Shown: piece by piece, positions 24,062 to 39,419 of the stretch
Numbering within the stretch: position 1 is the first letter of the stretch
Layout of the letters: each line of letters begins with the position of its first letter
IMG/VR virus record: IMGVR_UViG_3300042350_001432
Location: 1-60,734 of that record
Strand: one strand, 5' to 3'
DNA from: a virus
Taxonomy: Duplodnaviria; Caudoviricetes
Length of the DNA: 60,734 nucleotides
Notes under the pieces: generated by a model
The model's database searches: none
What the model was told of the DNA's origin: nothing
What the model saw: only the letters and a program-made list of their open reading frames with translations
Program-made: the position numbers and the translations under genes

Positions 24062-25681
24062 TTATGCCGGGTACAAAGGCTCACTTTGCTTGCCGGGATA
24101 GGTCTTCATGCTCTCAATCTCTTCAATGCGCTCCTGAGACCGCGTCAAAAGCCCAATATCACGCAAGTGGCGGATGCTCATAGACACAGTGTCAACCAAA
24201 TCGTCGTGCTTCCCTTTGGGAAACTGCCCAACTTGCGTGATTACCTGCTCAGCCCAGACCTTGTCGGGCGCATACACCATGCCGTCAGCAAAAAGATGCT
24301 GTACGGAATACAAGCGCGACAGCTTATCCTGACTCTTGGGGTCAGAAAGCTGCACGGCAAAGCCCTCGCTGCCATAAAGACGCCGCAATTCTTGCGAAAC
24401 AGATATGCCAGCGGCCTTATTCTCAACCAAAAGCTTGTCTACTTTCAATGACTTGCACGTTTTAGCTACTTTTTCAACCAAATCGTGGAACTCAAGGCGC
24501 TCCTGCCACGCATGCATCAGCATCAGGCGCGGCGCAGTCTCCGCATAGCCCCGGTCAAAGTACATTGGCCGCCCGTCCTTGTCCAAGATCCGGTTGGCAA
24601 TGGCTGTGGAGTCAGTCGTAAACACGCCCCAGATGGAAATAGCCGAATAGTCGTTGGTGGTTTTGGTTGTGTAAGCCGTATCCAACGACGCAATGATGTA
24701 ATCCATGGGCGGATAGCTGACTTCCTCCCACAGCTTCCACCATTCGCGCTTGATAACGCCGCCACCCGCAGGCTCAGGGCGCTGCTGAAGCTGCCCCGCA
24801 GCCATAAACGGACCAAGAGCGCGCTCAAGATTGAACACCTCCTTGGTCCCAAAGCGATCCGGCCACAGCAACTCACCCTCTTCCGTGCGTGGATCCTCCC
24901 ATCCAATGTTGGTCACAAAGGACCGGTCAGGCTCGTACTTCATGGGCAAACACAAATGCGTCCACTCACCAACGTCCTTCTCAAGGACGTGACCCGTCAA
25001 ATCATTTTCCGCCAGCCGCTGTTGGATAATCACATACGCGCCAGTCTTCTGATCATTCAAACGGGTGGACATCGTCCCATCCCACCACTCAATCGTGCTT
25101 TCAATGTTGGCGTCCGAAAACGCCTCCGACGCGCTGTTAGGGTCATCGATCACGATGATTGAACCACCTTCCCCGGTCACCGCAGCGCCAACGGACGTGA
25201 TCAAACGCTCACCGCCGTGGTCATTGGAAAAGCGCGACTTGGTGTTCTGGTCGGAGTTCAGCTTAAACCGCTCACCCCACATGCTCTGATACCACGGCGA
25301 CTCAATCAACCGGCGGCACTTAACACTATCACGCAGCACAAGCTGGTTGGCATAAGACGCCATCAGGAACTGCACACCGGGCCCAGACGTCGGGGACAGG
25401 GTCTGCTGCGCCCACGTCCACGCAGGGAACGCCACGGACGTAATGGTACTCTTACCCATGCGCGGCGGGATGTTGATAATCAGCCGCTTGATGTCGCCAT
25501 CAACCACTGCCTGCAAATGTTCGGCCACAGCTTCAATCGGCCAGCCATCCTTCCATGTGCTGGCATCAATATACTTCCACGCATTTGTCAAAAAATAATA
25601 CAGGCTCTCTTCGCAATCAGTTCGGTCCAACTCCATCAACTGGCGCTGAATGTCGATCTTCGAAATGTCGAAGTCGATCAT
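24062..25681 (-). CDS. terL: Terminase large subunit
   Basis: Walker A PPRMGKS, Walker B IIVIDDP, nuclease motifs SLDTAY and FPKGKHDDLVD. Confidence 0.95.
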   Translation of the reverse strand: MIDFDISKIDIQRQLMELDRTDCEESLYYFLTNAWKYIDASTWKDGWPIEAVAEHLQAVVDGDIKRLIINIPPRMGKSTITSVAFPAWTWAQQTLSPTSGPGVQFLMASYANQLVLRDSVKCRRLIESPWYQSMWGERFKLNSDQNTKSRFSNDHGGERLITSVGAAVTGEGGSIIVIDDPNSASEAFSDANIESTIEWWDGTMSTRLNDQKTGAYVIIQQRLAENDLTGHVLEKDVGEWTHLCLPMKYEPDRSFVTNIGWEDPRTEEGELLWPDRFGTKEVFNLERALGPFMAAGQLQQRPEPAGGGVIKREWWKLWEEVSYPPMDYIIASLDTAYTTKTTNDYSAISIWGVFTTDSTAIANRILDKDGRPMYFDRGYAETAPRLMLMHAWQERLEFHDLVEKVAKTCKSLKVDKLLVENKAAGISVSQELRRLYGSEGFAVQLSDPKSQDKLSRLYSVQHLFADGMVYAPDKVWAEQVITQVGQFPKGKHDDLVDTVSMSIRHLRDIGLLTRSQERIEEIESMKTYPGKQSEPLYPA

Positions 25682-25866
25682 TATCCCTGCATCCTTCGCA
25701 TTTCCACAAACTGCTCCAGCATGTCAGCGCAGCACTCCTTGGCATCCTCCCACTGATCCTTGGTCACAATCGGGATCTGCCCCCGCATCATCCGAATGAG
25801 ATAATGCGGGTTGATCATTAATTCAGGGTCAAACGTCATCGCGACGAAGTCGTCTTCTTCACTCAT
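25681..25866 (-). CDS. Hypothetical protein
   Basis: Short ORF coupled to both TerS and TerL. Confidence 0.55.
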   Translation of the reverse strand: MSEEDDFVAMTFDPELMINPHYLIRMMRGQIPIVTKDQWEDAKECCADMLEQFVEMRRMQG

Positions 25867-26485
25867 CAGGGACTTCCTCAAATTCGCCATCAGCGACCTG
25901 CTGCGCGCTAGGCGCTGCCAACCGCAAAGCGGAATTCAAAATGTCCCTAAGCGCCTCACGCTGATCAGCGTCAAGCAACCTTGGATCAATGGTCTGCGTC
26001 TTATGGCTAATCTCAAGCGGCTTGCCGTCAGCGCCCGTCATCTCAACGCGCTTCACGTCCCGGAAGCTGTCGCCACCCAGCCGGCTCAGCAAATACATCC
26101 CCGCCTGCACCGTGCCCTTGTGGGTCGGGTCGCGGGCAATGTTATACAAATTAGTCTTTACGTCATCCATCACAACGCTTAGGCCAATGTCCAACTCCTC
26201 ACGGTAATGATTTCTCAAAGCGTTAACGCTGATCCCCATTACCTTGGCAACATTCTCATGGTTCATCCCAAGGCCAACAGCGTGAAGCACACCCTTGCGG
26301 CTCTTCTGCGTCGGAATATGCTCATGGGAGGCTTTCTTCCTTGCCCCCTTGTCCGGCAGCAAGGCCCTGATCGGGGACACAGTATAGCGACCGTCAATGC
26401 CCGTCTTGTCATGGCCATCGACGTCGGTGGGCTCACCGTCTTGAACAACAAGGCTTTTGGAACTTTTGGCCATCGATATGCTCAC
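25859..26485 (-). CDS. Terminase small subunit (putative)
   Basis: HTH (VAKVMGISVNALRNHYREEL) and C-terminal VEMTGADGKPL; upstream of TerL. Confidence 0.75.
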   Translation of the reverse strand: MSISMAKSSKSLVVQDGEPTDVDGHDKTGIDGRYTVSPIRALLPDKGARKKASHEHIPTQKSRKGVLHAVGLGMNHENVAKVMGISVNALRNHYREELDIGLSVVMDDVKTNLYNIARDPTHKGTVQAGMYLLSRLGGDSFRDVKRVEMTGADGKPLEISHKTQTIDPRLLDADQREALRDILNSALRLAAPSAQQVADGEFEEVPDE

Positions 26486-26615
26486 CTAATTGGATAGACC
26501 CCTATTTAATACGGATCAGGTTCCTGAGCAAGGACAGCAAATTTTTTGGGTATACCCCCACCCCCTTTATTTCTTGAAGGGGGTGCCCCCTTTGCGGGGC
26601 AGAAGCACTTCGTCC

Positions 26616-26661
26616 AAAAGAAAGCAGCCGGCTAGCCTTTGGGGTCAAGCTAACCGGCTGC
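26616..26661 (-). terminator. Rho-independent terminator of the putative sRNA
   Basis: GCAGCCGGUUAGC...GCUAGCCGGCUGC stem followed by a U tract; the U-G wobble pairs form only in the minus-strand RNA. Confidence 0.75.
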
Positions 26662-26693
26662 GCACAACCACGAAAGGAGCAAACTATCGTGTC
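26616..26693 (-). ncRNA. Putative small RNA with an anti-Shine-Dalgarno loop
   Basis: Upstream promoter-like TTGCAC-17-TATGCA; 5' hairpin CACGA-[UAGUUUGCUCCUU]-UCGUG; 3' terminator hairpin followed by UUUCUUUU. Confidence 0.65.
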
Positions 26694-26698
26694 CGGGC

Positions 26699-26727
26699 TG
26701 CATACACCAACGTCCGATAGTGTGCAA
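26699..26727 (-). promoter_or_regulatory. Putative promoter of the sRNA
   Basis: TTGCAC (26727-26722), 17-bp spacer, TATGCA (26704-26699). Confidence 0.5.
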
Positions 26728-27007
26728 GATGGTTTGTGTGCGGCTGGTGGGGTGGGGCATATGGACTGTGGGTGTTTTGGGGGTGTGTTGCGGGTCGGCT
26801 GCATGTAACCCCCCATGGTACCTAATTCCTAAAAAAAAGGGGTATACCCCCCCTCAGTCATCCAGACAGTTTGCCAGCATACAAAAAGAACAAAAGCAGA
26901 CTGCCTTTCAGGCAGACGTTGTTTGTTAGTCAGCCTTCGGCTGAGCCGCGCGGCGCGCGGACGCGCGCTTCGCGCACGGGCGGCGCGCAGGCGGGGCGTG
27001 GGCGCAG

Positions 27008-27250
27008 TTACGGCAGGCACACCTCCCAGCGGCCCTTGTCACCGCCAAGCCTCGTGCCGGCTTCGACCCATCGGATGTCGCCGGGGCAGCAATACCCAAA
27101 GTCATAGCCGCGCATCGCCTGTATCTCAGCGTCATGCTGCGCGGCCTTAGATGCGACGTCGGCGTCTTCGCGCTTGTCGTAGTATCGCCAAGAGACCTTG
27201 CATCCCACCTCGTGGGCCTGCGCTTCGGGGTAGGTAGCGTAAGTGGTCAT
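27008..27250 (-). CDS. Early hypothetical protein
   Basis: RBS AAGGAGCAAAC; 80 aa. Confidence 0.75.
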   Translation of the reverse strand: MTTYATYPEAQAHEVGCKVSWRYYDKREDADVASKAAQHDAEIQAMRGYDFGYCCPGDIRWVEAGTRLGGDKGRWEVCLP

Positions 27251-27277
27251 GTCGTTTGCTCCTTGTGGTTGGCTAGG

Positions 27278-27469
27278 TTAGAGGGCTGCCAGCTTGGCGC
27301 TGATGTCGTCGAGGATGCGGCCCTTGATGATGAAGGTTGCGGTGTTGCTGCTGGCAATCCAGCCCTTCCATGTCGACTTCCAGATATGCCAGACATGGCC
27401 GCCGCCATACCCAGTGTATTCCTTGGTGATGCGGTTCTTGCGGCTTTCAATGTTGTGGTAGTTTTTCAT
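27278..27469 (-). CDS. Early hypothetical protein
   Basis: RBS AAGGAGCAAGC; downstream of an operator-bearing promoter. Confidence 0.75.
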   Translation of the reverse strand: MKNYHNIESRKNRITKEYTGYGGGHVWHIWKSTWKGWIASSNTATFIIKGRILDDISAKLAAL

Positions 27470-27495
27470 GTCGCTTGCTCCTTGGTTGGAGCCCT

Positions 27496-27525
27496 ATTAT
27501 TAGGGCGGGCTGCCCTGTCGGTCAA
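27496..27525 (-). promoter_or_regulatory. Early promoter with AGGGC-N5-GCCCT operator
   Basis: TTGACC gac AGGGC agccc GCCCT AATAAT. Confidence 0.75.
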
Positions 27526-27581
27526 CAAAATAAATGATCCGCTTTTGGAACTAACTCATCTCATTCTATGTCGATTGTCGC

Positions 27582-27611
27582 TTGACCAACAGGGCGAGCT
27601 GCCCTAATGAT
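27582..27611 (+). promoter_or_regulatory. Early promoter (ardC) with AGGGC-N5-GCCCT operator
   Basis: TTGACC aac AGGGC gagct GCCCT AATGAT. Confidence 0.75.
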
Positions 27612-27636
27612 GGGGCATCAACCAAGGAGCAAGCCA

Positions 27637-28494
27637 ATGACCACCAAGTTCGACATCTACCAAGACGTTACCGACCGCATCGTCAACGCGCTGGAGCAGG
27701 GCGCAGCCCCGTGGCTCAAGCCGTGGGCCGAAGGCAAGTGCGGCGGCTCAAGCCCCCACAACGCCGCCACTGGCCGCGCGTACAGCGGCATCAACTGGCT
27801 GGTGCTGTCCTGCTCATCCTACACGGCAGACGGCTGGCTGACCTATAAGCAGGCCACTGAGCTTGGCGGCCAAGTGCGCAAGGGCGAGAAGGGCACCCAC
27901 ATCGTGTTCTGGTCCTTCCCCAAGATCCAGCAGGACGACGGCACCTTCAAGGCTGTGCCGTTCGCCAAGGGCTATGTCGTGTTCAACGTGCAGCAGTGCG
28001 ACGGCCTTGACGCCGCCAAGCTCAAGGGCATGGAGCCCGTGGTCGCTGGCGACACGTCGATCAACGCACTGGCAGCGCGCGTGGGCGCGGACGTGCGCCA
28101 CGGCGGCAAAAAAGCGTTCTACACGCCGCAGGGCGACTACGTCGGCATGCCCACCGCCGACAGCTTCGCCAGCCCCGACGCATACGCCGCGACCCTCGCC
28201 CACGAACTGGTCCACTGGACTGGCCACAAATCGCGCTGCGACCGCCAGTTCGGCAAGCGCTTTGGCGACGACGCCTATGCGTTCGAGGAACTGGTCGCTG
28301 AAATCGGCAGCGCCTTCGTCTGCGCGCAGATGGGCATCCCGCTCGAAAACCTCCAGCATTCCAGCTACATCGCTTCGTGGCTCAAGGTGCTGAAAGCGGA
28401 CAAGCGCGCAATCTTCACCGCATCCTCGCAGGCAAAGCGCTCATCGGAATTTTTGATCACAAACGAACCTGTGATCGAAGAAATCGCAGCCTGA
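27637..28494 (+). CDS. ardC: ArdC-family antirestriction protein (ssDNA-binding domain plus zincin metallopeptidase)
   Basis: IYQ.VTDRI...PW.KPW...Y.GIN...W.TY.QA..LGGQVRKGEKG; HELVHWTGH; YAFEELVAE. Confidence 0.92.
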   Translation: MTTKFDIYQDVTDRIVNALEQGAAPWLKPWAEGKCGGSSPHNAATGRAYSGINWLVLSCSSYTADGWLTYKQATELGGQVRKGEKGTHIVFWSFPKIQQDDGTFKAVPFAKGYVVFNVQQCDGLDAAKLKGMEPVVAGDTSINALAARVGADVRHGGKKAFYTPQGDYVGMPTADSFASPDAYAATLAHELVHWTGHKSRCDRQFGKRFGDDAYAFEELVAEIGSAFVCAQMGIPLENLQHSSYIASWLKVLKADKRAIFTASSQAKRSSEFLITNEPVIEEIAA

Positions 28495-28507
28495 CATCAA
28501 ACGGGCC

Positions 28508-28537
28508 TTGCCAAACAGGGCATAATGCCCTACGACA
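28508..28537 (+). promoter_or_regulatory. Early promoter with AGGGC-N5-GCCCT operator
   Basis: TTGCCA aac AGGGC ataat GCCCT. Confidence 0.65.
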
Positions 28538-28601
28538 ATCAGGCGGCAGCAAGTCGCAGTCGCGTAAATCCTATTAAAGCTGATTTTATTGGAGACTTAC
28601 C

Positions 28602-28922
28602 ATGGCAACGATTTTCTCTCGCGCCCACAACCTGACCGACATCGACCAGCTTGGTGAGATCAAGGCTCAGATTGCGGACCTGACTGCGGTGGCTGACAAG
28701 CTGTCCGCGCAGATCAAGGAGCTTGGCGCAGGCAGCCACGACGGCGACATGTTCACCGCCACCGTGTCGGTGATCAACGAGCGCTGGTCCGCTGATCCCA
28801 AGGCTATCGAAGCCAAGCTGCTGGCGGTGCTGGGCGAAAAGTCTTTCGCATCGTTCGTGGCTGCGCACCAGAAGCGCACCGCTGGCTACACCAGCCTCAA
28901 GCTTGCAGCCCGCAAGTCGTGA
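28602..28922 (+). CDS. Early hypothetical protein
   Basis: GGAG SD; IDQLGEIKAQIADL coiled coil. Confidence 0.75.
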   Translation: MATIFSRAHNLTDIDQLGEIKAQIADLTAVADKLSAQIKELGAGSHDGDMFTATVSVINERWSADPKAIEAKLLAVLGEKSFASFVAAHQKRTAGYTSLKLAARKS

Positions 28923-28975
28923 TCATCACCGGGGCGGTCACAGTGCCGCCCCAACACCTGCAAGGAGCAAGACGC

Positions 28976-29131
28976 ATGATCACCCCAATCGAACAAGCCC
29001 GCCAGCACATTGCAGAATTGGCCCGCAAGGACGGTGAAATAATATTTTCCCGTGAGGTTATTGCTGGCTGCTGGGATCATCGCGACGATGTGCAGGCCGC
29101 ACTGTGCCGCTTTCAGGAGCAAGACGCATGA
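28976..29131 (+). CDS. Early hypothetical protein
   Basis: RBS AAGGAGCAAG before ATG 28976. Confidence 0.65.
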   Translation: MITPIEQARQHIAELARKDGEIIFSREVIAGCWDHRDDVQAALCRFQEQDA

Positions 29132-29310
29132 TCACCATGGACACCTACACCGCAGTTGGTTTGGCCGAAGGCTTCATCGAAGCTGACGACGAACAGCAGA
29201 TCATCGATGCGTGGCAGACGCTGCATGACACTGGTCTGGCATACCGCCTGCAAGGCTTTTTTGGGCGCACCGCTCAAGACCTGATCGCCCAAGGCGTGAT
29301 CAGCGAATAA
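29128..29310 (+). CDS. Early hypothetical protein
   Basis: RBS AGGAGCAAG; WQ.L.DTG.A..LQG.FGRTA..LI..G motif. Confidence 0.75.
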   Translation: MITMDTYTAVGLAEGFIEADDEQQIIDAWQTLHDTGLAYRLQGFFGRTAQDLIAQGVISE

Positions 29311-29333
29311 CCGTCAACCAAGGAGCAAAAACA

Positions 29334-29561
29334 ATGACCAAGACACTCGTAAAACTGACTATCGGCATGGAACATTACCTGATCGATTTGAAGGACGCCA
29401 CGGCGATCATGGAAACGCTGGCAGGGTGCAAGCGCCTGTCGCTGGAATGGGACAGCGAAACCGACAAGTATCTCACCGTCATTAAGCAAACGGAAATTTC
29501 GATCCGCATGGCAAACCCGGAAGAGGTTTCCGCCCCGCCTTACAAAGAACAGGGAGATTGA
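29334..29561 (+). CDS. Early hypothetical protein
   Basis: RBS AAGGAGCAAA. Confidence 0.7.
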   Translation: MTKTLVKLTIGMEHYLIDLKDATAIMETLAGCKRLSLEWDSETDKYLTVIKQTEISIRMANPEEVSAPPYKEQGD

Positions 29562-29566
29562 GGCCC

Positions 29567-29662
29567 ATGCACCTGTTCGCAATCCTCATAGCGTTGTGGG
29601 TTCTGGTCGTCCTGATCCCCGACGACCATGATCCGGGTGACGGGCGGGACTGGTGGGACTGA
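29567..29662 (+). CDS. Small membrane peptide (31 aa)
   Basis: MHLFAILIALWVLVVLIPDD...WWD, translated by hand; fills an operon gap. Confidence 0.45.
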   Translation: MHLFAILIALWVLVVLIPDDHDPGDGRDWWD

Positions 29663-29663
29663 C

Positions 29664-29900
29664 ATGACCAAGGACGAATACCGGGCCGCACTGCAACGCA
29701 TGGGGCTCCGTCAGGTGGACGTGTCGTGGATCACAGGGGTGACGCATCGCCATGGCCGCAAGTGGGCTAATGGCGACACCCCGATCCCCCAGTCCGTATC
29801 CCTTTTGCTGACCGCCCTTGAGGAAGGCCGGATCACCCCGCGATGGCTCAAAAAGCACATCCCGATTGACCCGCCATATAATTCCAGTGAGCGCGCCTAA
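29664..29900 (+). CDS. XRE/Cro-like HTH protein
   Basis: MT..EYRAAL.RMGL.Q..V....GV..R....W.NG..PIP pattern. Confidence 0.75.
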   Translation: MTKDEYRAALQRMGLRQVDVSWITGVTHRHGRKWANGDTPIPQSVSLLLTALEEGRITPRWLKKHIPIDPPYNSSERA

Positions 29901-30529
29901 AACGGGATTTCATCGTCAAGGTCGCCTTGGGTGTCGTGAACGTCATCCAAGGCGTCTCCCACGTCCCGCCTTAGCTGGACTACCTCCGCAGCCGGGAACG
30001 CGCTCTTAACGGCCTCTACGGGGCTCAGAGCGTCCAATATCACCGCCATCTCAGCCAGCGTATAGACACAGGCATTCTGGCGGCCCATTTTATAGTCTGT
30101 GGCGTCGTCAATGGTCCTGACGATCACATGCACCAACCCGGACGCCCCGACGACCTCCCAAGCTTCTGTTGGGCACCGCTCCAAGCCTGCATCGCCTGCG
30201 GCCTTGTCGAGCGCCTTCCAGCCATTGATCATGCGCCTGCACTGGGTCTTCACCCCTTCCAAATCGCCATGCCATATAGCTTGATTGGTCAGGTATCGCT
30301 GCCGGTCGAACTTCTCCCGTATCTCTGGGCCGACCATCAGCCGCAGCCTGCCTGCTCCCCACTTATGCTCCATGCCTTCCACGCACAGCGTCAGTTCATC
30401 CACCCACGCCTGTCCGGTGATATACATCCCGTAAGTTTTTTGCCACGGCGCTGCATCAAACCTGCGTTCACGGGGCACCACCTCGCGCCACTGGTTCTGC
30501 CCCGCGTATTTTTTCGTTTCCTTGGCCAT
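29897..30529 (-). CDS. Hypothetical protein
   Basis: 210 aa ending LDDEIPF, an SSB-tail-like acidic terminus. Confidence 0.7.
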   Translation of the reverse strand: MAKETKKYAGQNQWREVVPRERRFDAAPWQKTYGMYITGQAWVDELTLCVEGMEHKWGAGRLRLMVGPEIREKFDRQRYLTNQAIWHGDLEGVKTQCRRMINGWKALDKAAGDAGLERCPTEAWEVVGASGLVHVIVRTIDDATDYKMGRQNACVYTLAEMAVILDALSPVEAVKSAFPAAEVVQLRRDVGDALDDVHDTQGDLDDEIPF

Positions 30530-30923
30530 GTCCTGATCCCTTTAATAAAATAATCCAACGCCGGTTCGCAGCATACACCACAGGCGTACCTGCCTCCTGC
30601 TTCAACACCACCTTGCCATCAGCATAGGCCGCAACCTTTGCCAGCACCCACGCCATAATCGACGGATGATGCTCATTCAGCAGCTTCACGTCGGCCTTGG
30701 TTGCTGCCTTGCCGTTTAGGATACCCACTTCAAAAACATTCTTGGGCGCTGCCTCATCCAAATGCACCTTCACATTGATCCACCCATCCCTGCATTTGTC
30801 CGGGCAAATGACCAGATGCCACTTTCCCCGTTTGGCCATCAGCAGGTGCGGCTGCGTCCGCAAATAATTCCTCCGGCCATATCGCACCCCAACCTCCCCA
30901 ACCTTGGGCATACGTCTCGCCAT
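30468..30923 (-). CDS. Hypothetical protein
   Basis: GGAGG SD before ATG 30923. Confidence 0.6.
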   Translation of the reverse strand: MARRMPKVGEVGVRYGRRNYLRTQPHLLMAKRGKWHLVICPDKCRDGWINVKVHLDEAAPKNVFEVGILNGKAATKADVKLLNEHHPSIMAWVLAKVAAYADGKVVLKQEAGTPVVYAANRRWIILLKGSGHGQGNEKIRGAEPVARGGAP

Positions 30924-31155
30924 GCCATCCCTCCATCAACCGACAATCAAATCAGCCACAAACCTGTTTCCCCATACGCTTCGCGGATGCATCACCCGCG
31001 ACCGAAGGGAGAGCGGATGGGAGCGACAGCGACCTTCCGCGTCGGGTGAAGCTTCCGCATATGCCCAACAGACCTATCCCCAAACCGCTCACCCTTCCCA
31101 CCTACCATCGGCAGGCTGCAAGCCGCCGACCCGCTGTATACGTTTAGTATCAGGG

Positions 31156-31388
31156 TACTTCCGCCAATTACCTCCGCCGGGATTATCCTTTGTTTTCAAC
31201 GCTTGGCGGAAGTAGGCGGAAGTAACTTTGGATTACCTCCGCCATTTACCTCCGCCAATTACCTCCGCCAGATTTATCCTTTGTTTTCAACGCTTGGCGG
31301 AAGTAGGCGGAAGTAGGCGGAAGTAGATTTGGGCTTACCTCCGCCATTTGGCGGAAGTACGGCGGAAGTAGATTTGCTTACCTCCGCC
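31156..31388. repeat. Iteron-like array, putative replication origin
   Basis: 14 copies of TAC[CT]TCCGCC (7 forward, 7 inverted) plus a duplicated ttatcctttgttttcaacgctt spacer; non-coding. Confidence 0.8.
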
Positions 31389-31403
31389 ATCGCTGTTGTT
31401 CCT

Positions 31404-31622
31404 TCATCGCAACTCAAGCACAGTCATTGGCACGTCTAAAGAGAGCAGGAAGTTGTGGCGGGCAGCGCGATATGCGTCCAGAAACTTGCCCTTAAGAAGC
31501 TTTTGGGGTGGCGGTTCAGGAGACCACTCAACAACGAGCGGTAAGACCGACCCTTGGAGATCAAGGATGAACTCAGCGCTGTATTTCTTATTAATTTTAT
31601 ATTCCTTACGGTAAGCCATCAT
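31404..31622 (-). CDS. Hypothetical protein
   Basis: SD aaggag. Confidence 0.6.
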   Translation of the reverse strand: MMAYRKEYKINKKYSAEFILDLQGSVLPLVVEWSPEPPPQKLLKGKFLDAYRAARHNFLLSLDVPMTVLELR

Positions 31623-31633
31623 CGGTTTTCTCC

Positions 31634-31822
31634 TTATTTGTTGGGCAGGAGGGCTTCAAGCTCCCTGATCGCCCACTGGATGCCTTGGATCTCCACACCC
31701 ATGTCATGCAGACCATGGGCGTCGTGTGACTGTAGGAACACGTCTGCCATAGCCCAGCATGTAGCCTCGCGCTCCCGCAGCGACGTGATGCGTTCTGATG
31801 GGCTGTTGCGTAAAGCGCTCAT
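31634..31822 (-). CDS. Hypothetical protein
   Basis: ATGA overlap with the upstream gene. Confidence 0.6.
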   Translation of the reverse strand: MSALRNSPSERITSLREREATCWAMADVFLQSHDAHGLHDMGVEIQGIQWAIRELEALLPNK

Positions 31823-31995
31823 GGCTCCCGCCGCCGAAACTTCCCCAGCACATCCCTATCCGGCGTCAACTGGCGCATCTTGGCCAGTTCCTCATTCAGC
31901 GCAGCCACCTGCCCTTGCAGGGTGCCATTGATAACCAGCAACGCCGCTATAGCTATGCACAGCAGCGTGGCACCAAAGATAACTGACATTGACAT
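31819..31995 (-). CDS. Small protein with N-terminal TM helix (58 aa)
   Basis: Hand translation MSMSVIFGATLLCIAIAALLVING...RDVLGKFRRREP; purine-rich SD. Confidence 0.6.
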   Translation of the reverse strand: MSMSVIFGATLLCIAIAALLVINGTLQGQVAALNEELAKMRQLTPDRDVLGKFRRREP

Positions 31996-32008
31996 TACCC
32001 TCTCTCCT

Positions 32009-32419
32009 TCAATTGCTGACTTCGCGCGTAGCCTTTGGCCTCAACAGATTAGCGCGACCCCTCGCCACGCCATTAACCCGCGCCCTTTCATAAACGCCGG
32101 GGCGGTTTTCGCGCAGCGCTTCCGTATAACGGGACACTGAACCCCACCCATAATCATGCGCTAATTCGGTCAGGGTTTTTTCGCCAATGTCGCGCCCAGC
32201 AGGCGGCAGCATCGGCGAAGTGCCGGGTGGCCGGGGCGGGTTGTTGGCGCGGCGCTTAGGGGCCTCCTCTTTGGCCATACGCGCTTCCGTTGATTTGGTT
32301 TGGGACAGGTGGGCCCTAGCGCGCTCAGACAAGCTCACCTGCTCCATGCGCCCATCGGAATAAAGATACCAAAACCGTTTGCTGCGGATGATGACACGGC
32401 GGCCAAGCTTACTTGCCAT
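32009..32419 (-). CDS. Hypothetical basic protein
   Basis: Start 32419 overlapping the upstream gene. Confidence 0.6.
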   Translation of the reverse strand: MASKLGRRVIIRSKRFWYLYSDGRMEQVSLSERARAHLSQTKSTEARMAKEEAPKRRANNPPRPPGTSPMLPPAGRDIGEKTLTELAHDYGWGSVSRYTEALRENRPGVYERARVNGVARGRANLLRPKATREVSN

Positions 32420-32735
32420 TGATCGCCCCTTCCGCCTTGTGAATGGCCTGCTGCACATCAGACATCAACCGCAGTGCCGCGTTGGGCTCCGTGCCTCCCG
32501 CGCCGTCGTCCTCATAGTCCGCATATCTATCCAGATATTCCGCACACTCAGACAGCACATATAATAATTCATTAATCATGTTCTGCTCCGCTTTTAATTC
32601 CTGAGACCATTTCGCCAGCGCATCACGCGCCACCCTCAAGGCCTCTTCACTTACGCGGCAAGCCCGCGCCTGACGCGCTTGCTCCTGCGCGGCAATCAAC
32701 GTGTCCAGCACGTTCAATGCTTCTTGGCCCGTCAT
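32409..32735 (-). CDS. Hypothetical protein
   Basis: ATGA overlap; helical sequence. Confidence 0.65.
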   Translation of the reverse strand: MTGQEALNVLDTLIAAQEQARQARACRVSEEALRVARDALAKWSQELKAEQNMINELLYVLSECAEYLDRYADYEDDGAGGTEPNAALRLMSDVQQAIHKAEGAINGK

Positions 32736-32941
32736 GACAAAAGGCCACTTGCTTTTGCAGCATTACGCAGATGGTGCGGGGCATAGGCCCAGCGACGGGT
32801 CACAACCCCGTATTCGCTGCACAGGGCCTGAAGACGATCCTCAGCCTCCCGCAGGGCCCCGGCCAGTTCGTCATGCACGGCAAACACAGCGGCTGCGTCA
32901 GTCAGTATGTCGCGCTCTTGGCGCGGTTGCTCATTTTTCAT
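32732..32941 (-). CDS. Hypothetical protein
   Basis: RBS AAGGAGCAAAC. Confidence 0.7.
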   Translation of the reverse strand: MKNEQPRQERDILTDAAAVFAVHDELAGALREAEDRLQALCSEYGVVTRRWAYAPHHLRNAAKASGLLS

Positions 32942-32963
32942 CGGTTTGCTCCTTAGTGATTAA

Positions 32964-33380
32964 TCAGAAATTAAAATCGCGGAAAGCACTGCGACCGGGG
33001 CGGACATTGCCGCCAATCTCAAAGGTCTTAACGCCAGACTTCTTCCACCTGCGGCGTTCGTTGTCTTCCTCATCGTTCCAGTGGCGCAAGCTGATCTTGA
33101 TCTTAACGCCATCCGGGTTTGGCGTGTATTCGTAGCGCTGCACCTCCTGATTTTCGCAGTGCGCTGCAAAGCCACCGGCAACGAAGCGAAGCTCGTCGCG
33201 GTTGAGCAGTTCAGCGCGGTCAGCGCGCAGCGTCATGGTGGTCGCGGTCTTCTTGATGATGGTATAGGCGTGGACGTCGCTCCACACCGAAACACTGACG
33301 CCGTCACCAACCTTCAAGGCGGAAATGGCGTCTGCTTCTTCGTTGATTTCAGCGGTGCGTTCTGCGGTATAAGTCATCAT
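32964..33380 (-). CDS. Hypothetical protein
   Basis: First gene after an operator-bearing promoter; GGAG SD. Confidence 0.75.
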   Translation of the reverse strand: MMTYTAERTAEINEEADAISALKVGDGVSVSVWSDVHAYTIIKKTATTMTLRADRAELLNRDELRFVAGGFAAHCENQEVQRYEYTPNPDGVKIKISLRHWNDEEDNERRRWKKSGVKTFEIGGNVRPGRSAFRDFNF

Positions 33381-33421
33381 GATAGCATCTCCCTATGGGG
33401 CGCTGCCCCTGTTGGAGTCCC

Positions 33422-33452
33422 ATCATTAGGGCAAACCGCCCTGCCATGTCAA
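33422..33452 (-). promoter_or_regulatory. Promoter with AGGGC-N5-GCCCT operator
   Basis: TTGACA tggc AGGGC ggttt GCCCT AATGAT. Confidence 0.75.
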
Positions 33453-33455
33453 CAT

Positions 33456-35579
33456 TTAATCGTCATACCACCGCGTTTTGACCGGCTCCGGGCTGCCGTC
33501 CTGCAAGCCGCGCAGAACCCTCAGGCCGCGCGTCTTAGCCTTGTGATCAGCGATGCTCACTTCGATCACCTCATTTATCAGCCACGCCCCCAGCATGCGC
33601 TCAGCCAGATCCTGATCAAGGCCCCAGCGGTTGGCCATGATTGCCGCAGCGTATCGACCGTCGCGCTTGGCGTGGTAATGGTTCGACCACGGGCGCTTGG
33701 CTGTCCACGCCTCGCTCATCACATCCAATATCTGCTGGCACACCACCTTGCTGGGCCAGCCTGCCTTGTTGTCTTTAGCCTCGTCTGCTGCCGGCTCAGC
33801 GTACAGGCTGGTGCTTCCCTTGATGTCGCCAAGCTCCACCTTCTTCAGGCGGAAGCCTTGCTTCCACCCGTCTGGTGCCGATTTGATCTTCTTGGCAAAC
33901 ATCTCGCCAACTTCGGATCCCTCTTCGCGGGTGATCGACAGCAGGGCGTCACCAGCCCCGTCAAAGACTGTGGACCCGCGCAAATTGCCATTGCGGCTGG
34001 TGTGATGGACGCCGGCCACCGTTGACCCAAAGACCTCCCGGACACGGTCGCAGGCGGAAATGAACAGCGTCATGTCCTTTTGCAAATTTTCATCCGCACC
34101 CGGCAGCACCCTGCTGACCGTGTCCACGGTGATCAGCACTGGGGGCTCACCCAATTTGTTGGTGATGTCCAGCACCGTGCGCAATAGCTTATCGACGTCG
34201 GCCTCAGCCATGAAATTGATGGTCTGGCGGATCAGGTAGAACGGGATGTCGTCCACGTTGATCCCGGTTTCTTTTTCCCACGCCATGATGCGAAACTTCA
34301 GATCGGCCACGCCTTCGCTCGACAGCAGCACCACAGGTCCATGCTTGTTGATCTTACGACCCCACCACTCAGGCAGGCCAGCGGCGATGGACAGGGCCAT
34401 GCTCAGGGTGATGAACGTCTTGCCGCAGCCCGGAGGCCCGTAGGCAAACAGCAGGGAATTTTCGATCACGATGCCTTCAATCAGGTATCGCGGATCGGGC
34501 AAGGCCTTGATGTCGCCAATACTCAGCGTCTCATACACGTCGATATCAGATTGCGTCAGCGTCAGAGCCCCACCGCCGCCATCACCGGTTGCCTCACCCA
34601 CAACCAGTTCAAGTTTTTTTTCGGGCGCAGGTACGGCTGCCGCCTCCTTTACGCGATCAGTCCACTGCTCCATGGCAGCGTTCCACTTTTGGAAAAACAG
34701 AGACGCGCCGCGACCTTCCCGCTCCAGCAGGATGTGGTTGGGGGTGCCCGGTTCAAACAGCCGGCTCTTGACGCTATGGTCGTATTTGGTGAACGCCTCG
34801 CGCATCTCCCTTTCGGCGTCGGCATCGCTGATGAACGGGCTGACGCGATACAGATGCACGACCCTCGCCCAGATCAGGCGCGTCATGTAATCCTCGCGGC
34901 CATCCACAATCTGGCCAAAGGCGTCTGTGGCCGTCGCAGGGCTGTCTGTGCGCTCTCCGCGCTCGACCTTTGTAAACTGAGACAGAAGCTCGTCGATGGC
35001 CTCTATAAGCCACATAGGGGCTTCTGGGATGGCAATCGTCCACGGCTCATAGCCTTTCAGCCATTCGTAGGACTGGCCGCTCTCATGCTTGCTGGGCGGC
35101 AGCATGGCGAACCCGCCTTGGCCGCGAATGTCCACGCCCATGCTGGTCTTGTTGGTGGGGGATACCCAGCCGTCCGGGGCTTTAAGCAGCAACTGCAAGC
35201 CGCCGCCGCCAGTGCGCTGTGTCGGCGCATTGATCGGGACGCCACGGTTGTGGCAGTCGATCAGGTCATCCAGCCACGTCTTGGCAGCAGGATGGTTATG
35301 GCAGTCCACGTCAAGGACGAACACGCCGCCAGACGCATTGCCGGTAATGATGCCCATGTTGGGGCGGGAACGGAATTCACCGCTCCCGCCAAACCAGCCG
35401 TTGAACGTCTCATCGTCGGCAATGTGATCTTCATAGTCGCGCCACTTGATGACGGGGCGCTTCCACGCCTTATCCTCGCGCGGCATCTTTGCCGGCACGA
35501 CCTGAATGCCAATACCCCGGTACATTTTAGCAAAGTCAGCAGGACCCGCAAAATCGTAATCGAATTGAATATTTTCCAC
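33456..35579 (-). CDS. Bifunctional primase-polymerase fused to a RecA-like (RepA/AAA_25) helicase
   Basis: NMGIITG...VLDVD...TGGGG...DIRGQGG..MLPPS.H (Prim-Pol); GPPGCGKT, ITVDT, VHHTSR..RGS (helicase). Confidence 0.92.
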   Translation of the reverse strand: MENIQFDYDFAGPADFAKMYRGIGIQVVPAKMPREDKAWKRPVIKWRDYEDHIADDETFNGWFGGSGEFRSRPNMGIITGNASGGVFVLDVDCHNHPAAKTWLDDLIDCHNRGVPINAPTQRTGGGGLQLLLKAPDGWVSPTNKTSMGVDIRGQGGFAMLPPSKHESGQSYEWLKGYEPWTIAIPEAPMWLIEAIDELLSQFTKVERGERTDSPATATDAFGQIVDGREDYMTRLIWARVVHLYRVSPFISDADAEREMREAFTKYDHSVKSRLFEPGTPNHILLEREGRGASLFFQKWNAAMEQWTDRVKEAAAVPAPEKKLELVVGEATGDGGGGALTLTQSDIDVYETLSIGDIKALPDPRYLIEGIVIENSLLFAYGPPGCGKTFITLSMALSIAAGLPEWWGRKINKHGPVVLLSSEGVADLKFRIMAWEKETGINVDDIPFYLIRQTINFMAEADVDKLLRTVLDITNKLGEPPVLITVDTVSRVLPGADENLQKDMTLFISACDRVREVFGSTVAGVHHTSRNGNLRGSTVFDGAGDALLSITREEGSEVGEMFAKKIKSAPDGWKQGFRLKKVELGDIKGSTSLYAEPAADEAKDNKAGWPSKVVCQQILDVMSEAWTAKRPWSNHYHAKRDGRYAAAIMANRWGLDQDLAERMLGAWLINEVIEVSIADHKAKTRGLRVLRGLQDGSPEPVKTRWYDD

Positions 35580-35603
35580 GGTAAGCCTCTGATCGATGGG
35601 TAT

Positions 35604-36074
35604 TTAGAAGGGCTTCGCCCCATAATATGCGATGAGGGCAGCGTCAGATCGACCGTCGTCCTTTTTGCGCTGGAACAGATCCGCTTGCGCAGGAAAAAGC
35701 TGCATCGCCCTCTCCCGGCTTCCGTCCTTGCCTGCGCGCTGGCCAACGGCCTTCTGCCACGCCTGAGGCGTCACAAGGGTCGTGGGGATATCATATGCAG
35801 CTAAGATGCCCTCCACAATCCCCGTTGACCGACCGAAGCTGAAAACAGACGTCACGCCCTGACCGGGCATGGCGTTGACCCGCTCAACGAAGGCCGCCTT
35901 GATCGTCGTGCTTGCAAGAAGGTTGGCCAGCGCCTGAGCGCTGACCTCCCTCTTCGTCTTGCCGTTGCGGACAAGCTCCAGCACCGGCATGTCGAACACC
36001 TCAACGGTCTGCTCCGACGTGTCGTAGAGCGCCAGCGCCCCACTCAGGCCGGGATCGATGCCAAGAATGATCAC
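35604..36074 (-). CDS. RuvC-like Holliday junction resolvase
   Basis: ILGIDPGLSGA...FVERV..MPGQGV.S.FSFG...P..WQK...DGRSDAALIA. Confidence 0.88.
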   Translation of the reverse strand: MIILGIDPGLSGALALYDTSEQTVEVFDMPVLELVRNGKTKREVSAQALANLLASTTIKAAFVERVNAMPGQGVTSVFSFGRSTGIVEGILAAYDIPTTLVTPQAWQKAVGQRAGKDGSRERAMQLFPAQADLFQRKKDDGRSDAALIAYYGAKPF

Positions 36075-36307
36075 AGACCCAAAGCCGTCTTATACAAATC
36101 GACCATGGCCTCTTCGGCCTCACGCTCTGCCTTCTCCTTCTTACGAAGGCGGACAATCTGCTTCATGGCCTTAATGTCAAAGCCGGCAGACTTGGCTTCG
36201 GTGTAAACGTCTTTGATGTCGTCAGCGAAGCCCCTCTTTTCCACTTCAAGGGACTCAATGCGTTCGATCAACAGACGCAGGCGTTCGTTTGCTACTTGCT
36301 CAGTCAT
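36071..36307 (-). CDS. gapR: GapR-like (DUF2312/UPF0335) DNA-binding protein
   Basis: RL..LIERIE.LE.EK....DDIKDVY.EAK..GFD.K....IVRLRK...LY..ALG. Confidence 0.9.
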   Translation of the reverse strand: MTEQVANERLRLLIERIESLEVEKRGFADDIKDVYTEAKSAGFDIKAMKQIVRLRKKEKAEREAEEAMVDLYKTALGL

Positions 36308-36495
36308 TTCGTTTGCTCCTCGTTGCGCGCTTCCATCATCGCGTCGGCATATTCATATGCCAAGCGGGCAGCGTCAAACCGCCCATTCTCCTGACAGGAT
36401 GCCTGCAAAACCATGCCGGCAAACCAGTCGCGAAGCTCCATCCCCGGCGTGTGGCCCAGATCCGTCTGACGCGGGTAAACGTAATTGTCCTTCAT
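36304..36495 (-). CDS. Conserved small phage protein
   Basis: GM.LRDWFAG...AY.YADAM..AR motif; SD aaggagg. Confidence 0.75.
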   Translation of the reverse strand: MKDNYVYPRQTDLGHTPGMELRDWFAGMVLQASCQENGRFDAARLAYEYADAMMEARNEEQTK

Positions 36496-36505
36496 CAATG
36501 CCTCC

Positions 36506-36781
36506 TTATTGAATTGTTTGTTTTGCGGCTTCTTCTGCAAGCCCAAGGTTGATGGATTTAACGCTGTCATCAACGCTTTCGCGGATCGCGGTCATCATCT
36601 TGTCAACGAATTCCTCGTTAAAAAGGCCGCACACTATTCCAGACGCGAGGAAATTAGTCAGCATCATGCCCACAACGCCAACAGCAGCAGTAGCGTCTGG
36701 CACAATGGCAGACACAACTGTCTGAGCCGTGTCCGTCGCGCTCACAAGGTCCTGAAATTCAATATGTATGGCGCTTGCCAT
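36506..36781 (-). CDS. Hypothetical protein
   Basis: SD gaggagg. Confidence 0.6.
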   Translation of the reverse strand: MASAIHIEFQDLVSATDTAQTVVSAIVPDATAAVGVVGMMLTNFLASGIVCGLFNEEFVDKMMTAIRESVDDSVKSINLGLAEEAAKQTIQ

Positions 36782-36791
36782 CAAAGCCTCC

Positions 36792-37034
36792 TCAAAAAAT
36801 TTCGTTCAAACGCATGATGTTTGAAGCGATTTCCTTATTGTCGCCGGCAAGAGCCGCAGCCTCACGCACGATCACTGGCGCAACAACCGACAAAGCCCTC
36901 TGAGCCGCTAAGCGACAGAAATGCCTATCCTTTTCGCTTGCCTTCGTCGTGAAGGCGGCGGGGTTGATTGCCTTTGCTATCGCGTCAACCAGATCTTCAA
37001 TCGTTTCAATCTGGTCGTCTGAGATCACGGTCAT
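36792..37034 (-). CDS. Hypothetical protein
   Basis: TAATG coupling with the upstream gene. Confidence 0.6.
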   Translation of the reverse strand: MTVISDDQIETIEDLVDAIAKAINPAAFTTKASEKDRHFCRLAAQRALSVVAPVIVREAAALAGDNKEIASNIMRLNEIF

Positions 37035-37405
37035 TACAGATCTTGCAAAGCCAAAACCTGAACCGACTTTCCCTTTTGATCTGTCAGGCAGGACACAGCT
37101 TTAGGCCCCATACGGTTGGCAAAATACGACCCAATGTCGCGGGAAACCACGCGGGGATCGTATTGACCGCAGTCAATAACCTTTACATCGCCAGCCTTCA
37201 TGTTTTTCATACACGGCAGGAAAACGTCGCGCGTTTCCAAACGATGATACTGAGGCAATTTGCGCACATATTTCGCATCGCGCCGCTCCTTTACCTCAAG
37301 GTCGCCATATTCAAGGCCGCACGATGTGATCACTTTGTATTTTGCGCCAAGCAAATTCAGCACCCTGACTGCTTCGTCAAGCTTCCTCTTTTGAATTTCC
37401 AACAT
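37034..37405 (-). CDS. Hypothetical protein
   Basis: RBS CGAAAGGAGCAAA. Confidence 0.7.
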   Translation of the reverse strand: MLEIQKRKLDEAVRVLNLLGAKYKVITSCGLEYGDLEVKERRDAKYVRKLPQYHRLETRDVFLPCMKNMKAGDVKVIDCGQYDPRVVSRDIGSYFANRMGPKAVSCLTDQKGKSVQVLALQDL

Positions 37406-37426
37406 GTTTTGCTCCTTTCGATAAGA

Positions 37427-37639
37427 TTAATTGTCTTCGTCAAACCCCTTTGGCCTAAACCCCGTAAGCAACGCCTCAACTGCAACCGACGTCGGACCCG
37501 GCACGGGGCACTCCCCGCTTTCGTAGCGCCGGATCGTCCGGTCTGAGCCCTTACCCATACGCAAGGCTCTAGCCATCTGCGGGGCTGTCATGCCCAACGC
37601 ACCACGCGCTGATGCGAAATCCTCTTTTGTCTGCTTCAT
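37427..37639 (-). CDS. XRE/Cro-like HTH regulator
   Basis: F..AR..LGMT..QMA.AL....RTIRRYESG..PVP; ATG 37639 with GGAG SD. Confidence 0.8.
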   Translation of the reverse strand: MKQTKEDFASARGALGMTAPQMARALRMGKGSDRTIRRYESGECPVPGPTSVAVEALLTGFRPKGFDEDN

Positions 37640-37734
37640 TCTGGCTCCAATCGTTGCTGACTTACCACATGTCGAAATGTTGGGTATTTTCCTCATGTCG
37701 AAAACACGCAGCCGTTGTGGCGGCTAGCCGCAAT

Positions 37735-37810
37735 TGGGTACGGGCACCTCGCCCTGCGTGTCAACAGCATTTTTTTGGCTTGACGGAAAAATCTCAGGGC
37801 GTATTGTCCT
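37735..37810. promoter_or_regulatory. Divergent promoters, each with an operator variant
   Basis: Minus strand: TTGACA cgc AGGGC gaggt GCCCG. Plus strand: TTGACG-16-TATTGT overlapped by AGGGC gtatt GTCCT. Confidence 0.7.
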
Positions 37811-37869
37811 GTCACTTTGCATCTACGGTGACGGTGCCAGATAGTATCGTATTGTTATTAAGGGAAAAT

Positions 37870-38625
37870 ATGACAAACCCATTCCAAAAGCACGGGATAG
37901 AGCATCTGTCTCCATCAACGTGCAACCTGTTCACGTCGTCACCGGCTACCTTTGTCATGAAGAAGTGCCTTAAGATGTCGTCTCCTGTCGGCCCCGCCGC
38001 CTATCGCGGCACGGCGGTTGAGGATGGCGTTGCGCACGGCCTGTTTGATTTGTCAGCGCCGTTGGCTGAATGCACAAAGATTGCGCTCGACAAGTTCAAC
38101 GCGCTGGCGTCGTTTATCAGTGGGGAGAAGGTCGATAAGGAACGCAAGGCGATCCCTGACATGGTGGAGATGGGCCTGCGCGAACTGCGCAGCTACGGAA
38201 CGCCTTCGTCTGCTCAGGGCGCTATTACGTTGAACTTTGACGGTCTGCTGGTTCCCATGATCGGCTTCTATGACTTTGAGTGGGAGCAGCATGGCATGCT
38301 AACTGACTTGAAGACGAGCCATGCGCTGCCAAGCAAGATCAGCCACCCGCATGCTCGTCAGGTGGCCCTCTACCGCGCTGCAAGGGGCGACAACCTGTCG
38401 GCGCGCGTTACCTACATCACGCCCAAGAAACACGCCACATATGCCCTTGAGAACGCCCGTGAGCATGTCGAGGCGCTTGGCAAGATTGGTATGACGATCC
38501 AGCGCTTTCTGTCCCTGAGCGACGACCCTAAGGAGCTTGCCTCTTTCGTCGCCCCTGACACTGAGAGCTTTTATTTTAATGACCCGGTTTCGCGCCAACA
38601 GGCGTTTGAGATCTGGGGCATTTAA
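37870..38625 (+). CDS. PD-(D/E)XK family exonuclease
   Basis: HLSPS...RGTAV...G.YD...DLKT...RQVALY motifs; likely start ATG 37870. Confidence 0.8.
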   Translation: MTNPFQKHGIEHLSPSTCNLFTSSPATFVMKKCLKMSSPVGPAAYRGTAVEDGVAHGLFDLSAPLAECTKIALDKFNALASFISGEKVDKERKAIPDMVEMGLRELRSYGTPSSAQGAITLNFDGLLVPMIGFYDFEWEQHGMLTDLKTSHALPSKISHPHARQVALYRAARGDNLSARVTYITPKKHATYALENAREHVEALGKIGMTIQRFLSLSDDPKELASFVAPDTESFYFNDPVSRQQAFEIWGI

Positions 38626-38691
38626 CCAGTTTCCGCACAATGCGGGAAAGCAAGGTGACTGGCTAAACAGCACCATAAGAGGAAAACGAAA

Positions 38692-39363: not shown

Positions 39364-39419
39364 TGGACAGAGCGGTGGGCGGGGTGCTATGCCTCGCCCA
39401 CCACTTTGAAGGTATCGCT

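Follow-up and report, generated by a model that had tools for sequence, protein, structure and literature searches.

A likely conserved small RNA gene with an anti-Shine-Dalgarno-like loop ahead of the late operon of a lake phage

To our knowledge, the phage-encoded small RNAs that are understood are few, and each of those that can be named has a single target. The sar RNA of phage P22 is an antisense RNA that blocks a ribosome-binding site (RBS); in phage T4, many early mRNAs are shut off together via a signal at or near the RBS by the endoribonuclease RegB and the translational repressor RegA; and in phage lambda, the late operon is preceded by the layout of promoter PR', 6S RNA, terminator tR' and Q antitermination. 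The c4 RNA of phages P1 and P7 is described, in the part of the source that was available, as a small phage RNA acting around an RBS (PMC12197685). Outside phages, the anti-Shine-Dalgarno (anti-SD) RNAs cuckoo, ar15 and CcsR of alphaproteobacteria (Rfam RF02345, RF02791) are reported in the available text to consist of two to four adjacent hairpins, each loop carrying CCUCCUCCC (PMC4615179). In Cluster K mycobacteriophages, a 13-nt start-associated sequence (SAS) is found upstream of non-structural genes; its function is still called unknown in the available parts of the respective papers, which propose “RNA or protein” as its binder (PMC3203893, PMC11373665, PMC12699233). Here, a candidate small RNA gene is described in a virus record of 60,734 bp (IMGVR_UViG_3300042350_001432; hereafter the window, i.e., the whole stretch of DNA that was analysed), which is rated 100% complete and whose DNA was matched by 20 sequencing runs, all of lake-water DNA.

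The unit (26616-26727, minus strand) is located in a 520-nt gap with the small terminase gene TerS on one side and the last early gene (27008-27250) on the other. It comprises a promoter-like site (P1), a small hairpin (hairpin 1), a terminator hairpin (T3), and a U-tract, and the loop of hairpin 1 (loop 1) is complementary to a motif at the RBSs of about nine early genes. Judged from its sequence and that of its relatives, the unit is likely a conserved small RNA gene, and action of the RNA on the early RBSs is plausible for the window phage, though not as a conserved, co-evolving feature of its clade. That the unit is a real small RNA which pairs with RBSs is the reading to which we tentatively incline, while granting it less than an even chance. 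Such an RNA would resemble c4 and sar in being a small phage RNA whose loops pair around the RBS of phage mRNA; however, these have one target in an immunity circuit, whereas the site found here is common to about nine dispersed genes, and no Rfam C4 match was obtained for the window. Like the lambda layout, it would place a strong terminator, preceded by a promoter and a short terminated transcript, immediately before a long late operon transcribed in the same direction, but no Q-family protein was found in the window, a further promoter-like site (P2) is present between terminator and late genes, and the RNA would be shorter. The effectors of the T4 shut-off are proteins, whereas the effector proposed here is an RNA and its effect a prediction. 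If the reading is correct, a phage RNA with anti-SD-like loops would reach a whole early gene set via a shared RBS motif, as an RNA counterpart of the protein-based early shut-off of T4, and the unit, being small, sharply bounded, and conserved, lends itself to direct testing.

The elements of the unit that the earlier note, made from the sequence alone, had placed on the minus strand (TTGCAC-17-TATGCA, hairpin, terminator, and T-tract) were all recovered at the coordinates it had given (Table 1), as were the stem G-U pairs that work on this strand alone. The minus-strand RNA folded at -36.3 kcal/mol (z -3.57), a value reached by 0 of 200 shuffles, whereas the plus strand folded less well (-29.4) because two U-G wobbles of the stem turn into A-C mismatches there. 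T3 was the strongest of 20 minus-strand terminator candidates (-28.9 kcal/mol) and the strongest intrinsic terminator of the genome, and the GCUCCU core of loop 1 had a mean unpaired probability of 0.55-0.88. The two weaker terminator-like hairpins farther upstream, T1 and T2 (within 26828-26915), probably end early transcription ahead of P1. P2 was found at a fixed distance from TerS: the insertions of 100-200 nt seen in some relatives were positioned between T3 and P2, never between P2 and TerS. The pattern CTTGCNC-N16-18-TA...W had only three occurrences in the genome; since this is about chance level, a promoter class cannot be argued from the number alone. The earlier note had further described the RNA as free of open reading frames (ORFs). 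Taken literally this does not hold, since a minus-strand ORF of 104 aa and a plus-strand GTG ORF of 39 aa overlap the unit, but neither is conserved. The former was rejected as a gene (24-104 aa across relatives, sequence not conserved); the latter, whose translation the note had considered as an alternative, is not a conserved protein either, as it varied between 16 and 112 aa across 20 distinct relatives, was not conserved in sequence beyond the part overlapping the P1 hexamers, and had no Pfam match. Searches against Rfam at gathering score gave no match for the window or for five relatives, and those at an E-value of up to 10 gave chance-level matches only (26450-27050 of the window and relative L017).

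Conservation was assessed among TerS relatives of 76-98% identity (26 viral contigs and 11 metagenome contigs), and the unit was carried by every relative extending far enough upstream. P1 was present as TTGCNN-17-TANNNN in 23 of 23 distinct sequences, with exactly 17 nt of variable spacer sequence and no spacer indels, while indels were frequent immediately upstream; constant spacing amid variable sequence gives P1 the look of a real promoter, and its -10 hexamer is nearer consensus in relatives (TATACA, TATATA, TATAAG). For T3, 96% of the alignment cells were paired and 8 of 16 pairs had changed on both sides; the covariation score of 0.374 (0.242 in shuffles) was reached by 0 of 500 shuffles, pairing dropped to 20-54% when the partners were slid, and a T-run followed T3 in all 21 aligned sequences. 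In 22 of 25 unique sequences, T3 had a loop of unusual size that was rich in C (CCCC or CCUCC), with turnover of the loop sequence itself. Helix 1 was paired at 86% with one pair changed on both sides, its stem having been swapped once (CACG/CGUG to UCAG/CUGA, in the type of L009-L012), and GCTCCT in loop 1 was the longest invariant run across the 21 aligned sequences. The variant L143 has TTGCAA-17-TATAAG as P1, GUUCCU instead of GCUCCU as loop core, which still permits a G-U pair with AGGAGC, and an exact CCUCCUCCC in its terminator loop. A covariance model of the unit recovered it in 5 of 80 primase-anchored loci and in the window, all of them members of the close clade, and gave nothing significant on four genome-bin contigs with TerL relatives; one TerL relative (L133) had no comparable intergenic gap. 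The more distant TerS relatives L028-L041 were dropped from the comparison because they are unrelated phages with a methylase gene upstream, and blastn of 26300-27300 against a phage collection returned no match.

As far as the available description goes, the alphaproteobacterial cuckoo, ar15, and CcsR RNAs are similar to this unit in their adjacent hairpins with freely varying stems and in C/U-rich, anti-SD-like loops as the sole conserved sequence, and the host group is probably the same. Among the 25 unique sequences whose terminator loops were compared, however, L143 was the only one noted to carry the exact CCUCCUCCC, and the loops of the window read UUUGCUC(CUU) and GACCCCAA instead. The window had no match to these families even at an E-value of up to 10, L143 remained below threshold (18.9 of 40 bits for ar15, 17.5 of 65.3 bits for CcsR1), and the unit is phage-borne, at an early/late junction.

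On the side of the putative targets, AAGGAGCAAA with at most one mismatch occurred 15 times in the window against an expectation of 4.05 +/- 2.15, a number reached by 0 of 100 shuffles, and five occurrences were exact 10-mers of this type. In the form (C)AAGGAGCAA(A/G)C, the motif is common to about nine early genes, 5-8 nt upstream of the ATG (Table 1). Gene starts were called heuristically (codon log-odds and an SD rule), and early and late classes were set by coordinates, with 27000-39950 as early; on this basis GGAGCAA was present in 8 of 26 early versus 0 of 45 late start regions (Fisher p = 1.5e-4). The nine complementarity lengths that the earlier note had listed for early gene starts were all reproduced, including the extra CAACCAC/GUGGUUG pairing at gene 27250, whose start region formed the best duplex of all 71 (-24.8 kcal/mol). 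When loop 1 with its flanks was used as bait, the nine best duplexes of the 71 start regions were all early, and early and late duplex energies differed as the note had anticipated (Mann-Whitney p = 0.007), whereas a generic anti-SD control had no early bias (p = 0.46). To a large extent, the ranking repeats the motif enrichment in another form. Pairing between loop 1 and the TerS RBS was considered as well and rejected, as the longest run was 5 nt in Watson-Crick pairs or 7 nt with G-U and TerS ranked 16th of 71.

Table 1. Coordinates of the promoter-hairpin-terminator unit, its surroundings, and the start motifs in the window
Feature	Position	Strand	Details
P1, -35-like hexamer TTGCAC	26722-26727	minus	read directly
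P1, -10-like hexamer TATGCA	26699-26704	minus	17-nt spacer from TTGCAC
Hairpin 1	26669-26691	minus	stem CACGA 26691-26687 / UCGUG 26673-26669; 13-nt loop UAGUUUGCUCCUU 26686-26674 with GCUCCU
T3, terminator hairpin	26624-26661	minus	15 bp, 9 G-C; loop GACCCCAA
U-tract UUUCUUUU	26616-26623	minus	predicted 3' end; RNA of about 77-80 nt
T1, upstream terminator-like hairpin	26901-26915	minus	weaker than T3
T2, upstream terminator-like hairpin	26836-26855	minus	GGGGGGGTATACCCC + T8; conserved, changes keep the palindrome
P2, CTTGCTC-17-TAAATA	26503-26532	minus	second conserved promoter-like site, about 30 nt upstream of TerS start
TerS, small terminase gene	25859-26485	minus	heads late operon; phrog_309 2.2e-05, phrog_12540 5.2e-13
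TerL	24062-25681	minus	phrog_38 1.5e-85
Start motif AAGGAGCAAA	27255-27264	minus	RBS of gene 27008-27250; 11 nt, 18/20 nt pairable including upstream CAACCAC
Start motif	37408-37417	minus	RBS of gene 37034-37405; 13 nt, perfect complementarity
Start motif	32945-32954	minus	RBS of gene 32732-32941 (69 aa); 11 nt
Start motif GAGGAGCAAA	36312-36321	minus	RBS of gapR 36071-36307; 10 nt
Start motif	29320-29329	plus	RBS of gene 29334-29561; 10 nt
Start motif AAGGAGCAAG	27474-27483	minus	RBS of gene 27278-27469; 9 nt, or 11 with one G-U
Start motif AAGGAGCAAG	27624-27633	plus	RBS of ardC 27637-28494; 9 nt, or 11 with one G-U
Start motif AAGGAGCAAG	28962-28971	plus	RBS of 51-aa ORF starting at 28976; 9 nt
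Weaker start motif CAGGAGCAAG	29114-29123	plus	RBS of gene 29128-29310; 8 nt
Orphan start-motif copy AAGGAGCAAAC, plus-strand reading of the loop	26674-26691	plus	followed by GTG 26689, start of 39-aa ORF 26689-26808

These features may be arranged into a mechanism as follows. P1, probably read by the host sigma-70 polymerase, would start an RNA of about 78 nt with a 5' hairpin that ends at T3, while the late operon downstream apparently has a promoter of its own, P2. Loop 1 would expose GCUCCU as an anti-SD-like core, joined in most relatives by a second C/U-rich loop on the terminator hairpin. Acting in trans like the alphaproteobacterial anti-SD small RNAs, the RNA would bind RBSs and lower translation; in the window phage the predicted pairing spans 9-13 nt, with gene 27250 reaching 18 of 20 nt. 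The likeliest targets would be the approximately nine early genes with AAGGAGCAA(A/G)C, ardC and gapR among them, and production of the RNA, the direction of its effect, and its timing are all predictions in this scheme. Its likely origin is an inverted copy of an early-gene RBS region; in distant relatives, the immediate neighbour of the late operon is a divergently transcribed gene block that has such RBSs. An inverted RBS copy as origin of the loop is plausible and compatible with every reading considered below.

Several observations weigh against an RBS-pairing RNA, among them the comparison of loop and RBS among relatives, which the earlier note had expected to co-vary. Three main loop types were found in the clade (AUAGUUUGCUCCUUU, UUUGGUUGCUCCUUG, and CAGUGGCUCCUCCUCUG), and the RBS motif AAGGAGCAA was unchanged across all genomes compared, also in L043 and L046, where the loop was altered to GGCUCCUCCU. 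Start regions that pair contiguously over at least 8 nt were counted for the own RNA of each phage and for the window-type RNA, because energies of whole-domain duplexes were too permissive (medians -14 to -19 kcal/mol). The window scored 9 of 71; with own and window-type RNA, respectively, L050 scored 5 and 6 of 23, L053 4 and 3 of 39, and L063 only 2 and 1 of 23. In L043 and L046, where the loop had changed while the RBS motif stayed, no start region paired with the own RNA (0/41 and 0/32), as opposed to 8 and 6 with the window-type RNA. Hence, the expected covariation failed, long complementarity is not maintained in the clade, and the conserved part is the 6-nt anti-SD-like core, which itself reads GUUCCU in L143. 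In an energy-based swap test the own RNA was no better than a swapped one, and when CUCC was fixed and its flanks were shuffled, 23 of 300 shuffles matched the observed energy of the top nine. P1 of the window is weak, agreeing with the consensus at 6 of 12 positions and missed by a consensus scan, and the hairpin-1 stem offers a single independent compensatory replacement. The interpretation of the earlier note thus stands in part: the conserved non-coding unit, the match of its loop to the early RBS motif, and the ranking were borne out, whereas covariation between loop and RBS was not.

Distant relatives (primase 50-65% identical) add to these objections, as they lack the unit yet have repeated start motifs of their own; the motif therefore does not need such an RNA. 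In several of them (L085, L093, L094, L111, L115, L121, and others; primase about 50-55%) the motif is TGGAGAT(T/C)GA followed by ATG, with up to eight copies per locus, predominantly on the strand that does not encode the primase. For this motif, neither an orphan copy in a hairpin nor an antisense element was found, and no analogous unit was detected in 11 distant relatives scanned for terminators and genes, of which the junctions of 10 were also read. Extended start motifs seem to be a family trait that changes between clades. The late operon of the distant relatives mostly abuts a divergently transcribed gene block, and a conserved CCTGTGGATAAC followed by a T-run was observed beside the late operon in the divergent promoter regions L094:20380-20570, L104:10640-10900, and L115:17190-17510; presumably it resembles a DnaA box.

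The unit immediately precedes a late operon of about 47 kb and shares its strand, a position that would equally suit a leader acting in cis and is a further point against a trans-acting RNA. P1 would then be the late promoter, T3 would stop its transcripts with a short RNA like lambda 6S as by-product, and a phage factor would provide read-through of T3, recognizing hairpin 1 with its invariant loop in the manner of nut or put sites. We regard such a checkpoint as somewhat unlikely, even though the unit shares its strand with TerS/TerL at a distance of about 130 nt upstream, the strongest terminator of the genome is its T3, an invariant loop on a small hairpin suits a protein-binding site, and no phage RNA polymerase or sigma factor was among the proteins scanned. 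At least one further clean intrinsic terminator is present within the late block (about 12777), so that processive antitermination would be useful. Against the checkpoint stand the conserved P2-like site at fixed distance from TerS and the tolerance of 100-200 nt of inserted sequence between T3 and P2; the checkpoint explains neither the large C/U-rich terminator loops nor, except as the relic of an ancestral RBS, the 9-18 nt of complementarity to early RBSs. Among about 40 proteins no match to a Q or N antiterminator was obtained in Pfam or PHROGs, profiles that small antiterminators often escape, and the adjacent proteins of 80 and 63 aa had no Pfam or PHROG match. If such a leader is nevertheless what the unit is, it marks the late-gene checkpoint of a widespread lake phage family. 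The small RNA reading, for its part, fits the conserved promoter, the strong terminator, the two exposed C/U-rich loops, and a separate P2 at fixed distance, as far as sequence can tell.

Function may also reside on the plus strand, where AAGGAGCAAAC would be an ordinary RBS for the ORF at GTG 26689 or a still-constrained leftover of the gene that once headed an ancestral early block of divergent orientation. CAACCACGAAAGGAGCAAACTATCGTG is almost identical to the true RBS regions of genes 27250, 27469, and ardC; invariance is confined to the SD core, as an RBS would predict; and a start codon follows 5-9 nt past the SD-like core in all four types of hairpin 1 (mostly GTG, with ATG in L009-L012 and L143). 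Moreover, in most of the 11 distant relatives a divergent block abuts the late operon with an RBS at the same position and orientation, some of these carrying the motif of their own clade. Two additional well-spaced start codons are nonetheless estimated to arise by chance in about 8% of cases, the peptide is conserved neither in length nor in sequence outside the overlap with the P1 hexamers, the G-U pairs and the U-tract fit the minus strand only, and no plausible upstream promoter was seen on the plus strand by scanning and by reading of the sequence. A relic in decay would not be expected to surpass the rest of the region in conservation, and we judge a plus-strand function very unlikely. 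Hardly better is the prospect that no dedicated RNA function exists at all, with T1, T2, and T3 insulating the late operon, the conserved blocks being DNA sites (for packaging, replication, or a late activator), and the RBS likeness stemming from a rearranged RBS. Three tandem terminators within 300 nt, conserved G/C palindromes and a near-invariant GGTACCATGGGGGGTTAC in the gap beside the terminase genes, and a phage family that otherwise does without the unit speak for it; we still consider it quite improbable, as it is difficult to account for an invariable 17-nt P1 spacing (23 of 23 sequences) unless a promoter is present, and an insulating terminator requires neither a loop that is large and C-rich nor, immediately before it, a small hairpin whose loop is invariant.

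The small RNA reading finds a parallel in the SAS of Cluster K mycobacteriophages. As described in the available parts of the SAS papers, the SAS resembles the window motif in being an extended motif around an SD core a few nucleotides upstream of start codons and in being restricted to non-structural genes; however, (C)AAGGAGCAA(A/G)C of the window and GGGATAGGAGCCC of Cluster K share only the SD core, so that the likeness is an analogy and not homology. Phage lineage and host are also unrelated, and the window motif is shorter and less uniform. Phage Anaya (JF704106) has 16 forward SAS copies and one inverted copy, and the latter makes up the apical loop (10 nt, CCUCCUAUCC) of a long hairpin (L122:39790-39960, about 59789-59959) that lies in a 385-nt gap without annotation. 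This hairpin region had a fold z of -4.3 and was conserved in 150 mycobacteriophage records; in eight aligned phages, the stems had compensatory and G-U changes, while the loop was identical in five, altered in two, and deleted in one. Anaya and the window thus have in common that a hairpin loop carries the start motif in inverted form. Some clades in both systems have the motif without an inverted copy, and the motif is therefore independent of it. By analogy, the parallel may serve as a lead rather than as proof. No non-coding RNA is mentioned at the site of the inverted SAS in the available text of the Adephagia paper, and a literature search on ZoeJ, SAS, and non-coding RNA yielded nothing relevant. 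A broader idea, which we hold to be unlikely, is that start motifs are handles for a phage antisense RNA that is encoded beside the late operon, was born of an inverted RBS, and shuts off immediate-early genes (among them anti-restriction ardC, and gapR) together, a design which would have arisen independently in Cluster K. It would explain the role of the inverted SAS, which, in the available texts, was left unexplained in the description of 2011 and is unmentioned in the papers of 2024-2025. The unit thereby bears on the purpose of start-associated sequences, and the inverted copy in a hairpin loop is a lead that can be checked in cultivable mycobacteriophages. In the accessible portion of the Adephagia paper, a DUF3310 protein of that phage is speculated to act on the translation of SAS-carrying genes (among PMC12699233, PMC11373665, and PMC3203893). 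A DUF3310 protein is also encoded in the window (39662-39946, plus strand; Pfam 3.4e-20), and a protein instead of an RNA is therefore also a candidate reader of the start motif here.

Nearly all genes of the window are on the minus strand. The late block extends leftwards from TerS/TerL, re-enters at the other end of the record, and continues down to the endolysin gene (40505-41131), altogether about 47 kb on a single strand; the early/replication region (approximately 27.0-39.9 kb) encodes a primase-helicase, a resolvase, GapR, and ArdC. The labels that the earlier note had given to gapR (minus strand) and ardC (plus strand) were confirmed by Pfam (GapR_DNA-bd, 1.2e-29, and ArdcN, 2.9e-34, respectively). 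An alphaproteobacterial host is plausible based on the GapR domain and on bin labels, binning being weak evidence: three of four genome-bin contigs with TerL relatives were labelled alphaproteobacteria. No relative of TerS was found among genome contigs, and ARAGORN detected neither a tRNA nor a tmRNA in the window.

Around the unit, the near-invariant block GGTACCATGGGGGGTTAC and several G/C palindromes (GGGGTATACCCC, GGGGGCACCCCC) flank it beside the terminase genes (26811-26828 and 26541-26600, minus strand) and could serve in packaging or be bound by a late regulator. The insertions between T3 and P2 occurred only in L005, L009-L015, and L027 among the relatives compared. Their ends resemble a tRNA acceptor stem with CCA in L013-L015 and L027; searches with ARAGORN, in the nine insertion-carrying relatives, and Rfam gave no match in the insertion. 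The interval from gene 27469 to ardC (27496-27611) holds two near-consensus promoters placed back to back, TTGACC-18-AATAAT and TTGACC-18-AATGAT, which probably drive genes bearing the start motif. Upstream of gene 37405, an ORF of 70 aa (37427-37639, minus strand) resembles a helix-turn-helix regulator by eye, so that gene 37405 is not the first of its operon; gene calls are uncertain there because of an overlap with a long plus-strand ORF (37612-38625), and no consensus promoter match was found in 37300-37720. Lastly, a sequence of about 45 nt that ends in a hairpin with a T-rich tail was present in four plus-strand copies (approximately 172, 867, 1569, and 60488). The copy at about 172 has no assigned gene, and the other three are within minus-strand ORFs close to the two record ends; the recurrence of the sequence suggests repeated gene modules, which are possibly tail-fibre-like.

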